Shown in pieces: positions 12,760 to 17,740 of a DNA stretch of 64,000 nt (position 1 is the first letter of the stretch; every line of letters starts with the position of its first letter). This DNA is from Octopus vulgaris (Eukaryota): positions 78,802,001-78,866,000 of the forward strand of contig OX597823.1 in NCBI GenBank assembly GCA_951406725.2, in the 5' to 3' direction. Made by a program: the position numbers and the translations under genes. Below the pieces are notes generated by a model. That model was not told the origin of the DNA, made no database searches, and worked only from the letters and a program-made list of their open reading frames with translations.

Positions 12760-12959
12760 TTAAGGAATTTTATATTTTGGTATGGCAGTTGGATTACCGG
12801 GTATAGCAATTTTCAGTTTCCTTTGAGGTATCGAAAGGTAACACATGTTCCGTCTTGCTACAAACCCGAAGGGGCAAGCACAGTAGTGGAAGCCGGGTCT
12901 GTTAACACATCTGTAAGGGAAAGGGCATCCACCATTGTTTTTCTTACATTCGTTGATGT
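12760..12959 (-). CDS. Exon 3 (last) of secreted single-EGF-domain protein
   Basis: Acceptor ttttctcccttatcttcag, phase 1. Encodes DINECKKNNGGCPFPYRCVNRPGFHYCACPFGFVARRNMC (6 Cys, calcium-binding-EGF-like spacing), a basic tail and TAA. Confidence 0.85.
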
Positions 12960-13511
12960 CTGAAGATAAGGGAGAAAACAAACCAGCATAAGAAAAATAA
13001 TAACACAAAATTAGGGAACAATATACATGGATGTGAGAAGAGCCGACATCTAAATTTATGAGGTGCCTAAGCAGCCGGGTAGTCATATACTTACATTTAT
13101 TGTGTTAAGATGAAAAACCCTCACCCTTGTATTCAAGGTAGGCCCCTGTGCTGATTCCTTGAATATGATTCGATCCCTTTTTATAGTCTACACGTCCTAC
13201 TAAGGTACCGGAAGGTCTGCACTTTTCTTGTAGTCCTCACTTGATCTTATATTGTGCAGTGGTTTCTTCCAATATCCATATATACCTTACGAAAGGTGGA
13301 GTGTCATATCACTGTCAGATGTTAAATGGGGACCTGAATAACTTTTAGTAAATATGCTCAAACCTAGCAACTCTCATGTTGAGGTACCGTCACATGCTAT
13401 CAAAATAGTCAATGTGATAGAGAAAATAAAAATATGCGGGTGAAAATGAAGACCCCCTCCCCGAGACCTGATTAAACAACCACAAGTGAGAAGGAAACGG
13501 TAATAAGCCTT

Positions 13512-13744
13512 AAGGCGGCGAGCTGGCAGAACCGTTAGCACGCCGGGCGAAATGCGTGGCCGTATTTCGTCTGCCGCTACGTTCTGAGTTCAAATTCCGC
13601 CGAGGTCAACTTTGCCTTTCATCCTTTTGGGGTCGATAAATTAAGTACCAGTTACGCACTGGGGTCGATGCAATCGACTTAATACTTATGTCTGTCCTTG
13701 TTTGTCCCCTCTGTGTTTAGCCCCTTGTGGGTAATAAAGAAATA
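13512..13744 (+). mobile_element. tRNA-derived SINE with Meta/MESC-like domain, full monomer
   Basis: A box TGGCAGAACCG and B box GAGTTCAAATTCC. 13-bp TSD GGTAATAAGCCTT at 13499-13511 and 13745-13757. Confidence 0.9.
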
Positions 13745-14831
13745 GGTAATAAGCCTTCTGGTAATGTAGAGCTGGACAGAGTTGAGATTGCTCTAGTACG
13801 GACAGATAAATCAATGTGTGTTGGGTTAAATATTAAACTGAAATGATGAACCTAGCAACACAGTAACGATTCCTAAATATTTTAAAATCCGTTCAACAGC
13901 AGCAATAATAGGATCCCGGAGTATTGATACGTATGTGGTACCATCTTCCTCTATATTTACCCTCGTTGATATCTGTTACATAAATAAATGTCATTTAGAC
14001 GCAAAATCTGCAAGAAACTGTAGCATATCCATCATGCCTGCTTGGATTGTCTCAGGGACACAACGGGCACTCAAAACGCATGCGCAAAACACAACAGCCC
14101 TTACAGATAACGGAAGTGGTAAAAGGAATATAAGGGGTCCGACAGACAGGATCAGCCTCTTTTCCATTTGGGCAGTCAGCTTGTGAACTGCCCACAGCTA
14201 GGACTGCTAGCTCTCTTCCTCTGTATCAGCGCTCTATACGTGGTATCGCGATGCCTGCCTCACAGTGCGTAACATTTGTTAACGAATTCACACACACACA
14301 CACACACACACAGTGTTTCTAAGCATATCATGCCAGGATGCCGTAGCATTTTACAATGAATAAATCGCTGTCGCTAAATTGCCTGAGTTTATTGCTTCCT
14401 CTCCGCAAAACTGCTATTTACCAACACTACACGCATGCCTGTCTTGATTCCCTGAAATTCCACCATTGCAGTCACAAATACACATCTAAACTATATTTTA
14501 AAAAACACTGTATGTTTTCATGTACAGCATGTTCACACTGTTATACGACACCGCATGCAGTTAAACAAGCAAACAATACGGACAACTCATCGCCATCACG
14601 TTTTTATCTCTCTCTCTCTCTCTCTCAACTCCCAAACAATCGTTCTTAACACTCTCTTCAAAAATATCCATGGCTACATTGCCTCTTTACAGAGAGAAAC
14701 AAATCTATCTTTTAAAAAAAATCTATTGTTTGCTGTGCTAAACTATTCGAATGCTTCAATTACCTCTTCGTTATTTAGAAGTGTTTTATTCTTTATGGAT
14801 TTATTGTTTTATTGTTTATGGTTCCTTCCCT

Positions 14832-15401
14832 CGTTTTCTGGATTGTGCCTATACCATCTTTTTTCTGTTGTTATTCCATAGTGTTGGCATAGCTTCCAGT
14901 ATATGTAGGTCCCAGCTCTGTCGTGTCTGTGAATATATTCCTTCTTAGCCAGGACTGGGCAGCCAGAGATAATATGATTTATTGTTTCTTGTCCATCTCC
15001 ATATATTCTGCAGTTACTTGTTATGTTTCTTTTCCTTATATGTTTTTGATAATTACTGGTGGGGAGGCTTTGGTCAGGTGCTGCAATTAAAAATCCCTCC
15101 GTCTCTACTTTGAGTCCTGAGCTTCTCAACCATTGCTGGGATTTTGCTTTGTCTATTTCTTTTGCATTTAGTTTGGTCCAGTATTTGCCATGAAGGGGCT
15201 TTTCTTGCCATCGTTTTATCATGGTCTGTTGCTGTTCGAGTTTTAGTTTGTATTTCATTTATTTGATTGCTTTTGTTGTTTCTTCTTCTTTTTCATATTT
15301 GTTAGGTAGTATGAAGTCTTGATCCTTAAATTCTGAGAAGAGTTTTTTGTTTTGCTCGTGTTATGCGGCTATTTGTGTCAGTTTTCCTTGTTTCTGAAGT
15401 A
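14832..15401 (-). mobile_element. R4/Dong family A fragment (part of inverted duplication)
   Basis: ORF 14809-15258 WQEKPLHGKY...ETEGFLIAA...RHD. Shares its 5' end and internal deletion with the 8578 copy. Confidence 0.9.
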
Positions 15402-16030
15402 TTTCATAATTACTATAATAACAATAATAATAATAATAATAATAATAATAATAATAATAATAATAATAATAATAATAATAATAATAATAATAATAATAAT
15501 AATAATAATAATAATAATAATAATAATAATTATTATTGTTATTATTATTATTATTATTATTATTATTATTATTATTATTATTATTAATTTATAAATAATC
15601 GCGTGTATATCGTTGGTAGTGCTGTTTCTTCTTTACTTACCAACGCATGTCTTCTTATTGAAACGGAACCCTGGTTGACAGATACAGTGATAGCTCCATG
15701 GTATCTCGATGCATAAACCATATCTACCACACGGATTCGTTATACACCAGCCCCGAACTGGAAAGTAAAACATATGAATTGCATGTATTTAAACCAGATA
15801 CAGTATTATTAGAGAGATGTAGAATAGAGGGAACCCTCGTTAGAAAGCTATAAAAAGCACTTAGAAGTGGCAAAGTGGTTCTTGATCAATTGCTCCATGC
15901 CAAGAACGAAGGTTGTGTTGTAACAGCTAGGGCGGGTGCACTAAAATATGAGGGGATGAAAGTCATTCGATGGGCCAGAATGACGAAGTCGCAACATGGT
16001 AACGAAGCCACAATTCAGCCGGAGATGCAG
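14832..16030 (-). repeat. Copy 2 of ~1.2-kb inverted segmental duplication (in intron 2 of the EGF gene)
   Basis: Reverse complement of 7995-9140. ORF-track peptides 7934-8149(-) and 15875-16120(+) are nearly identical. Confidence 0.85.
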
Positions 16031-16119
16031 AGTTCTGCCGATAGCAGTCGAAGACGTACGGAACGCAATGACTGGCTGCACAAGAGAGAATTCTCCGGGG
16101 CTGGATGGTCTGGCATTTG

Positions 16120-16433
16120 AAACGAAACTCTGCCTCATCCGCCATACTCACCAAACCTCACGCCTACCGACTACCACTTTTTCAAGCATCTCGACAACCT
16201 CCTGCGTGAGAAATGCTTCAAAAACCAAGACGATGCCATTCACGCCTTCAACGACTTCATCGCCACCAGAACACAGGATTTTTACGCTAATTGCATAAAA
16301 AAATACTTGTTTGGCGTTGGCAAAAGTATGTTGATTCAAATTTATTTCGATTAATAGAGTTTTGTTTGAGCTGAGATATGTGCATCTGAATTTAAAGTTT
16401 AAAAACCGCAAGAACGTTCTTGACAACCTAATA
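16120..16433 (+). mobile_element. Mariner transposon 3' relic
   Basis: Translates ETLPHPPYSPNLTPTDYHFFKHLDN (YSPDLAPxDY motif). Ends in TIR-like ACAACCTAATA. Confidence 0.8.
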
Positions 16434-16610
16434 ACTGTGTCAGAAGCATAACTAAAAGCAATGCTGTTGCTTATATTTGTGATATAAAATAAAAAGAAGA
16501 AATTAATTACGCTGATGTTCATGTATTAGAGTATAAAATATAAGATACTAAGAAACCTCTAAGTCTTGCTTTAACACAGAATCGGAACAGTATTGAACAC
16601 ATGTCCTTAC

Positions 16611-16651
16611 CATTGCGCTTTCCAATTTTGAGATGGGTTGAACAATCCGTC
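16611..16651 (-). CDS. Exon 2 (41-nt mini-exon) of secreted EGF-domain protein
   Basis: Acceptor tttttcttcacag, donor GTAAGG. Converts phase 2 of exon 1 to phase 1 of exon 3. Encodes (R)TDCSTHLKIGKRN(D). Confidence 0.75.
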
Positions 16652-16879
16652 CTGTGAAGAAAAATAATGTTAGAATATCAGAATGTATAACGAGAACATA
16701 GTGCGCTGTGGGAAATCTTCGTTCTACTCTTCAATCGCTATTTGAACGAGGATAGCATACTGTCACTGCGGAAAGAATGGAATATCATCCTGCTTCTTAG
16801 GACGGGTGATAAAGAAGATTTTAAATTACTATAGCAAACTAAGCCTTTTTTCCCTCATCTTTACGAGCTTCTTACAATG

Positions 16880-17110
16880 TCATCAGACTATCAAAACACC
16901 TCGATGGCCAACAGAGTTGTGAAAGGACAAATCCAGTTGGGACGGACAGGTCGAAGGGTTAACAGGCAACATGTGGATCCGTGCAGTTTTTGAGTGGAAT
17001 CCAAGAAATTGGAAAAAAAGGTCACTTGGACGGTCATCACGACGATGGGAAGATAATTTGGCCAAGCAATTCGGGCCAAGATGGAAAAAAATGGCAGAAG
17101 CAAGAACAAA
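16880..17110 (+). mobile_element. Highly decayed RTE LINE 3' fragment
   Basis: Weak similarity (W.G.V...W.PR..K..G) to the RTE C-terminus seen at 38520-38865. Confidence 0.4.
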
Positions 17111-17534
17111 TTAGAAGCGCATCGTGCCTAGTGGTGTATCTTGTATTAGGGGAAAGTAAAACATTTACGAAGGTCTAACGAACAACACACAAGTCTAATA
17201 CAGAAACTAAAGATTTTCATTTGTGACTATTATCAGAGAGGAATTGGTTTAAGTAAAATCAAGAACAACATGAAATATTTAAATGCTTGGTTGATTCAGG
17301 CACCTTGAGTCCCTTCTGCTGCAATCCTTAAAACCAGGCCCCCTTCTCTCCCCTTCTTTTATTCCAATCTCAGACGCCCTGTAGAAAGTTATGTGCTTCG
17401 CCCACTCCATCTTGTCTGAAATATTTAAAAGAGACCCAAGCACTAAACTCGCTTGAAATGTTTAATAAGAGATTAGACAACGCCAGGGTTAAGTTGGAAT
17501 CGGGTAGAGTAAAACAATAATACACGAAATTTAC

Positions 17535-17740
17535 CTCAGCGCAGCCTTTCCTCCTTCTGTAGTTGAGGGACTGTCAGTTACGGCCTTATCTTCCCCATCT
17601 GACGCTGTTACGTTCTCGAACGGTTTTGCAATCACAGTCACTTCTTCATTATTCACTGACGGTCGTTCAGTCGTCTGCTTTCCTTCAATCACCAAAAGAC
17701 CCACAACGAAAACAAATGAGAAAAGTACGAGGTTCTTCAT
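17535..17740 (-). CDS. Exon 1 of secreted EGF-domain protein (signal peptide and acidic/Thr-rich spacer)
   Basis: ATAGCC-ATG context. MKNLVLFSFVFVVGLLVIEG hydrophobic signal peptide. Donor AG|GTAAAT, phase 2. The three exons total 447 nt = 148 aa plus stop with no internal stop. Confidence 0.8.

Follow-up and report, generated by a model that had tools for sequence, protein, structure and literature searches.

We analysed a 64,000-nt stretch of the Octopus vulgaris genome (assembly GCA_951406725.2, contig OX597823.1, positions 78,802,001 to 78,866,000, forward strand), referred to below as the window, and within it a small minus-strand gene between 17740 and 12760, which encodes a predicted secreted protein of 187 amino acids (aa) with two epidermal growth factor (EGF) modules. 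The parts of this gene, and the features of the window that bear on its history, are as follows; a slash in a splice site marks the exon boundary.

17991-18032, minus strand: candidate core promoter, with CCAAT at 18032 and TATAAA at 17996, about 255 nt before the ATG; placed by motif positions, its function being presumed.
17535-17740, minus strand: coding exon 1, 206 nt, from the ATG at 17740 to the donor GAG/GTAAAT, ending in phase 2; predicted signal peptide and a Thr/Ser/acidic spacer with sequon N43.
16611-16651, minus strand: coding exon 2, 41 nt, phase 2 to phase 1, CAG/GAC at its start and ATG/GTAAGG at its end; TDCSTHLKIGKRN, with the unpaired Cys72 and G79-K80-R81.
15641-15757, minus strand: coding exon 3, 117 nt, phase 1/1, acceptor TTTTACTTTCCAG, donor TTG/GTAAGT; first EGF module, calcium-binding motifs lost.
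13856-13972, minus strand: dead EGF exon, 117 nt, resembling module 4 of a five-EGF paralog (P0008) by profile, tblastn and ungapped identity.
12760-12959, minus strand: coding exon 4; second EGF module (DINEC...NMC) and a 26-aa basic tail, with the stop at 12762-12760.
12261-12562, minus strand: candidate polyadenylation signals of the 3' untranslated region, AATAAA at 12562 and 12266 and ATTAAA at 12296 (motif positions).
8267-8383, plus strand: orphan inverted copy of exon 3, within a 1.2-kb inverted duplication.

A sequence-only reading of this locus had proposed a hidden gene of three exons and a 148-aa product with a single EGF module. The three exons that it named stand, with AG/GT ends and fitting phases, as does the necessity of the 41-nt exon: leaving it out shifts the frame and brings a stop after four residues, and exons 1, 2 and the last exon joined alone do give 148 aa in frame. 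What that reading lacked is the exon at 15757-15641, missed because 117 nt is too short for the list of open reading frames on which it drew. This exon corresponds to 39 residues lying between GKRN and DINEC in the Octopus sinensis protein XP_036361583.1 (P0004); located in the window, it codes for a complete six-Cys EGF, so that the protein has two modules. The product of the four exons is letter for letter the O. vulgaris protein CAI9729251.1 (P0006), in which GKR is followed by NVRGWC and the two EGF modules; the proposed GKR-NDINEC junction, and with it a peptide starting at NDINEC, falls away.

Calcium-binding EGF modules are encoded one per phase-1/phase-1 exon, and the same arrangement was found here: exon 4 begins in phase 1, within an Asp codon, and exon 3 and the dead exon are both 117 nt long. 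The donor of exon 3, GTAAGT, is the full consensus. As the exon is symmetrical, skipping it would preserve the frame, and a product lacking it may exist as a minor form. A 12-nt in-frame micro-exon at 13972-13961 (minus strand), formed by the acceptor of the dead exon and a donor GAG G/GTAAAT, was considered and rejected, as it is used by none of the four members of the database cluster described next.

Used as queries, the two outer exons each retrieved the same protein, the 187-aa P0004 of O. sinensis (one match from one candidate and one match from three), and when the last exon was run against proteins between 62 and 200 aa long, the one candidate was also the one match, again the 187-aa form. 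The corresponding database cluster has four members; three are 187 aa long and the fourth is 237 aa. All four contain exon 3 and carry exon 2 unchanged, and the 148-aa form is not among them. Identity to the window product is 187 of 187 residues for P0006 and 180 of 187 for XP_036361583.1. The remaining 187-aa member, P0007, is from an assembly contig no longer than 1210 nt, compared with a genomic coding span of 4981 nt, from which we infer that it is the product of a spliced transcript of a close relative. The reading frame and all 12 EGF cysteines are kept in P0004, P0006 and P0007. The 237-aa member is the annotated isoform CAI9729250.1, in which splicing out of exon 4 occurs at 12865 and the C-terminus is a hydrophobic stretch; the donor at 12865 (minus strand) is weak (CGG/GTTTGT), its use costs the second EGF its Cys6, and the extra sequence has no good match within the 64-kb window.

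The gene is therefore not hidden but already annotated in both O. vulgaris (CAI9729251.1) and O. sinensis (XP_036361583.1). The names given automatically to these entries (fibrillin-2-like, fibulin-like, adhesion GPCR-like) are all misleading; fibrillins and fibulins proper combine extended EGF arrays with TB or fibulin C-terminal domains, and the fibrillin/fibulin label is unsupported here by any such domain beyond EGF. The protein is annotated but unstudied: no paper on it, on its accessions or on the proposed nonapeptide was found in the full-text literature, a coverage that leaves out most subscription journals.

The only hydrophobic stretch of the 187-aa protein is at its N-terminus (hydropathy 2.05 over residues 1-19). 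Residues 1-20 (17740-17681) form a predicted signal peptide, with the likely cleavage between IEG and KQ, and a 61-aa segment separates it from the first EGF. Thr, Ser, Asp and Glu are abundant in residues 21-69 of this segment, where one N-glycosylation sequon (N43) also lies. With 13 cysteines in total, one is unpaired. The portion that follows K80-R81 comprises 106 aa (12.1 kDa, pI about 9.5, net charge +13). An AlphaFold model made without an alignment has a helix at residues 3-20 and a mean pLDDT of 49.6, too low for a fold search.

All seven Pfam families matched at E <= 0.1 are of EGF type. The cEGF family (37.5 bits, cut-off 26.6) spans the junction of the two modules, FXa_inhibition lies just above its cut-off (33.5 versus 33.4) and EGF_CA below it (26.2 versus 27); TB, fibulin C-terminal, LDLa, Sushi and TSP1 domains are all absent from the Pfam matches of the 187-aa protein at that threshold. 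The 15 solved structures matched all come from extracellular or cell-surface proteins (Notch, NELL2, uromodulin, LTBP1, protein S, ADGRE5), and in each the matching part is a run of tandem EGFs. The cysteine spacing is 4/5/8/1/10 in the first module and 6/5/8/1/10 in the second. Calcium-binding EGFs carry a D/N-x-D/N-E/Q motif ahead of Cys1, which is matched by the second module (V-D-I-N-E-C) and not by the first (N-V-R-G-W-C), that is, by one of the two. We scored modules for Asn-hydroxylation by the PROSITE consensus C-x-[DN]-x4-[FY]-x-C. This consensus has been lost in both live modules, neither of which matches it or the EGF_CA pattern; in P0008 four of five modules match both.

In its phase-1/1 exons, its DINEC linker and its spacing of 4-6/5/8/1/10, the window protein thus resembles tandem calcium-binding EGF proteins such as fibrillin, fibulin/EFEMP, LTBP, Notch, uromodulin and NELL2; it differs from them in having two modules only and in lacking the Asn-hydroxylation consensus and any TB, fibulin C-terminal, ZP or membrane domain. 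EGF receptor (EGFR) ligands have GxRC before Cys6 and a C5-C6 spacing of 8, whereas the loops here end FNKKTC and ARRNMC, with a spacing of 10, and the last EGF has His at the aromatic consensus position. The sequence-only reading had been right on the His, on the missing GxRC and on preferring the calcium-binding lineage to the EGFR-ligand type. It had also pointed to Lymnaea EGF and gigantoxin I, which are single-EGF secreted peptides; this likeness is not supported for a protein with two modules, a 61-aa segment ahead of them and no GxRC. In the available part of PMC4914847, candidate EGFR ligands are defined by only one EGF motif, and the window protein has two. The available part of PMC8851504 places venom EGFs directly after the signal peptide and describes hormone EGFs as followed by a transmembrane segment, and neither arrangement is seen here. 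The ant EGF toxins it covers have the mature EGF right after the signal peptide, an architecture that sea-anemone toxins are said to share (PMC8851504 and the accessible text of PMC13311285). Ant Mg1a and the sea-anemone EGF toxins, as far as these sources describe them, are like the window protein in being small secreted precursors with no transmembrane segment, and unlike it in module number, in the pre-EGF segment and in cysteine spacing, which here is not that of a ligand. As described in the accessible part of bioRxiv 10.64898/2026.04.09.716377, the cephalotoxins SE-CTX and DECA-CTX, likewise secreted cephalopod proteins with an EGF module, combine it with LDLa, Sushi and TSP1 domains, which the window protein lacks by its Pfam matches.

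A full-length search gave two matches from 33 candidates, P0004 and P0008 (E = 5.8e-52). P0008 is the O. sinensis protein XP_036369522.1, named 'fibulin-1-like', with five tandem EGF modules; its model starts without a signal peptide and is probably incomplete. Like the window protein, it has a G-[KR]-R before its first module and His at the aromatic position of its last; unlike it, it retains full calcium-binding and Asn-hydroxylation patterns in the four modules mentioned above and has two additional cysteines. A profile was built from the seven modules of P0006 and P0008, a training set that does not include the dead exon, and run over the six frames of the window. Four places rise above noise: the two live exons, the inverted exon-3 copy and, at 13972-13856, the dead exon. 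The last scores 27.4 bits (E = 8e-08; tblastn E = 5e-09), and over its 39 codons 23 residues are identical to module 4 of P0008 without a gap. Three of its six cysteines are lost, a stop interrupts its frame, and CT replaces the donor GT; its acceptor AG is intact. Exon 4 is closest to module 5 of P0008 (31 of 41 residues identical; 59% over 69 aa for module and tail together), and exon 3 is nearest to module 1 (17 identities, the best score of the five). Exon 3, the dead exon and exon 4 thus stand in the same order as modules 1, 4 and 5 of P0008, and modules 2 and 3 have no profile-detectable trace in the window. It is likely, judging from these alignments, that the gene is a trimmed paralog, in which a multi-EGF gene was duplicated and its middle modules lost; duplication followed by middle-module loss would be the simplest reading. 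As a case of exon-module loss it is a clean one, with the dead fourth module still readable in an intron and assignable to a single module of the paralog.

As a separate observation, the two cysteines of P0008 beyond its 30 module cysteines (one at residue 6, before module 1, the other at residue 172, in module 5) are both absent from the window protein and could mark a lost long-range disulfide.

The non-EGF parts have no relative outside Octopus within the sensitivity of our searches. A profile search of residues 1-103 against 1.84 billion representatives gave four matches at E <= 0.001, of which two are from Octopus (P0004 and P0011); the other two, the long repeat proteins P0009 and P0010, one of them from a bacterial metagenome-assembled genome (MAG), were dropped as compositional matches. 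One of the two Octopus matches, an 88-aa O. bimaculoides homologue named 'Secreted protein', is 51% identical to exon 1 in a gapped alignment and stops before the GKR region; its spacer is strongly acidic (net charge -16). The matches listed in the ESM Atlas are all below 0.9, belong to generic EGF clusters and serve as leads only, and in a metagenome scan one of 400 pattern matches was confirmed, at 45% and over the EGF region only. Also set aside were a DUF2149 match on exon 1 (E = 0.029), which does not reach the cut-off, and short look-alikes at 49922 and 51281, which found no support when inspected. The description of a small, probably secreted and apparently Octopus-restricted precursor, with signal peptide, spacer and a G-K-R ahead of EGF and with no transmembrane segment in its main form, stands.

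On balance we favour, as fairly probable, the reading of a secreted, lineage-restricted protein with a pair of EGFs, derived by trimming from an array of calcium-binding EGF modules. Secretion is predicted from the N-terminal hydrophobic segment and from the name of the 'Secreted protein' homologue. Duplication of a multi-EGF gene would have been followed by exon loss and by decay of the middle modules; the signal peptide would send the product to secretion, where the EGF pair would fold with six disulfides and could bind a partner, either protein or polyanion, while being stiffened little or not at all by calcium. The spacer might be retained as a glycosylated, disordered stalk, leaving Cys72 free for cross-linking, or be trimmed at K80-R81 to give a product of 106 aa and 12 kDa with a pI of about 9.5; we judge the chances of such trimming to be about even. 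If cut, the segment upstream of GKR would be a pro-segment and not a hormone. The likely role of the protein is that of a small, cationic binding protein outside the cell, in matrix or in secretions of the mucus type, and a hormone-precursor role is likely to be the less fitting of the two.

The sequence-only reading had taken the gene for such a hormone precursor, releasing an amidated TDCSTHLKI and an EGF peptide from the 148-aa, exon-3-skipping form. The G-K-R on which this rests is indeed present (G79-K80-R81; four more dibasic pairs are found within the EGF modules or downstream of them), exon 3 could be skipped in frame, and exon 2 is unchanged in all four cluster members; but the proteins are 96% alike overall, so the identity of exon 2 is no test of conservation, and in the paralog the site reads GRR with nothing matching upstream of it. 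None of the four lacks exon 3, its donor is at full consensus, and the sole match in the 62-200-aa range is the 187-aa form. Convertases follow the rule (K/R)-Xn-(K/R), with n = 0, 2, 4 or 6. The N-terminal site of the nonapeptide would be the lone Arg69, which has Lys at P5 (K65-A-A-L-R69, n = 3) and no basic residue at P2, P4, P6 or P8, and thus departs from this rule; the peptide would also hold a single unpaired cysteine (Cys72). G[KR][KR] occurs within a disulfide loop of the paralog as well (KIGRKC), which makes the motif alone a weak indicator in a family rich in Gly, Lys and Arg. We therefore regard a functional amidated nonapeptide as very unlikely, and the prohormone model as a whole as improbable. 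Scarcely better placed is the view that the gene is a decaying duplicate, or that its working form is a longer, possibly membrane-anchored isoform of which the 187-aa protein is a by-product. One EGF exon is dead, two paralog modules have left no trace in the window, the calcium motifs are eroded, one cysteine is unpaired, and the 237-aa isoform has a hydrophobic end. Against this, three proteins retain the frame and all 12 EGF cysteines, exon 1 has a homologue in O. bimaculoides, and the 237-aa model uses a weak donor, cuts out Cys6 and draws on sequence poorly matched in the window. The sequence-only reading had itself named splicing of the EGF exon into a larger multi-EGF or membrane protein as the outcome that would count against it; we found this in a mild form, as two EGF modules.

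A more serious competitor, though we still consider it unlikely, is a processed gland effector: the pro-segment would be removed at K80-R81 in a gland with regulated secretion, and the fast-changing, cationic two-EGF protein of 106 aa would act on another organism or on a mate, in saliva, skin defence or a reproductive secretion. The signal peptide, spacer and dibasic site suit this view, as do the Cys-rich, basic product, the near-neutral charge of the pro-segment and the acidic spacer in O. bimaculoides. Several results speak in its favour and weigh against the extracellular binding protein that we prefer. The paralog has MGRRECND where the window protein has IGKR--NV, and G-[KR]-R at the same place means that cleavage there is possible; both proteins have an even number of cysteines downstream of the motif (12 in the window protein, 32 in P0008), as expected from a true processing site. 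P0004, P0006 and P0007 agree fully over residues 1-82, and all differences, 7 in P0004 and 8 in P0007, fall among the 105 residues beyond, several of them changing charge (P = 0.019 and P = 0.010 respectively, by Fisher's exact test, for a boundary picked post hoc). That the differences lie only after GKR is a hint, from these few sequences, of faster change there, which would suit an effector that changes rapidly more than it would a structural protein of the matrix. Also against the binding-protein reading, shuffling gave no significant sign that exon 2 is what remains of an EGF C-terminal loop (P = 0.14 for the best and P = 0.20 for the summed score, 5000 shuffles), and neither one tryptic peptide nor three accessions gave a match in the supplements of the 2023 O. 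vulgaris skin mucus and the ink proteomes (PMC10138644, PMC10142993), whose underlying databases may not contain this protein. The inverted copy of exon 3 also fits an effector, as its cysteines and splice sites are kept and 9 of 9 nucleotide differences fall in changed codons; nine of nine amino-acid-changing substitutions would nonetheless arise with a probability of about 0.08 under neutrality, by our own estimate. Venom EGF peptides, in the available part of PMC8851504, are mimics of EGFR ligands with a single EGF directly adjoining the signal peptide, whereas the window protein has two modules of calcium-binding descent without GxRC and none of the LDLa, Sushi or TSP1 domains of cephalotoxins. 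A stronger version, which we hold to be doubtful, is of an Octopus effector in the making: a five-EGF calcium-binding matrix gene would have been duplicated and reduced by exon death to signal peptide, pro-segment, GKR site and EGF pair, and a prohormone convertase would release this calcium-free cationic pair in a gland (saliva, skin or reproductive tract), the pair diversifying under positive selection and a spare, diverged copy of the variable exon lying nearby. Should cleavage at GKR and gland-specific expression be shown, the gene would mark a new way of arriving at a secreted effector: its source would be a matrix-type array of calcium-binding EGFs, whereas the ant and sea-anemone EGF toxins come from an EGFR ligand.

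The inverted copy of exon 3 lies in a duplication of about 1.2 kb (7994-9143, plus strand, versus 14834-16030, minus strand; about 92% identical). Its frame, six cysteines and both splice sites are intact. Its nine nucleotide changes, all in changed codons, affect eight residues, compared with 14 changes over 272 nt in the upstream flank, and it shares residues partly with the O. vulgaris exon and partly with the O. sinensis-type exon. No partner exons for it were found on the plus strand of the window.

Repeats are found in the introns of the gene and elsewhere in the window. A 1002-aa frame at 28778-31786 (plus strand) is presumably a non-LTR (long terminal repeat) retrotransposon reverse transcriptase, judged by motif, with a broken relative at 24933-27346 (plus strand); we take fragments in the third intron (14809-15258) and at 8848-9228 to be of the same type, and those at 16148-16298, in intron 2, and 19894-20169 to be mariner-type transposase-like. 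The segment at 13508-13750 belongs to a dispersed, SINE-like repeat of about 240 nt with at least 10 further matches in the window (72-91% identity). At 36893-38489, about 1.6 kb of GAA/GAG-type simple repeat gives rise to long spurious frames on both strands.

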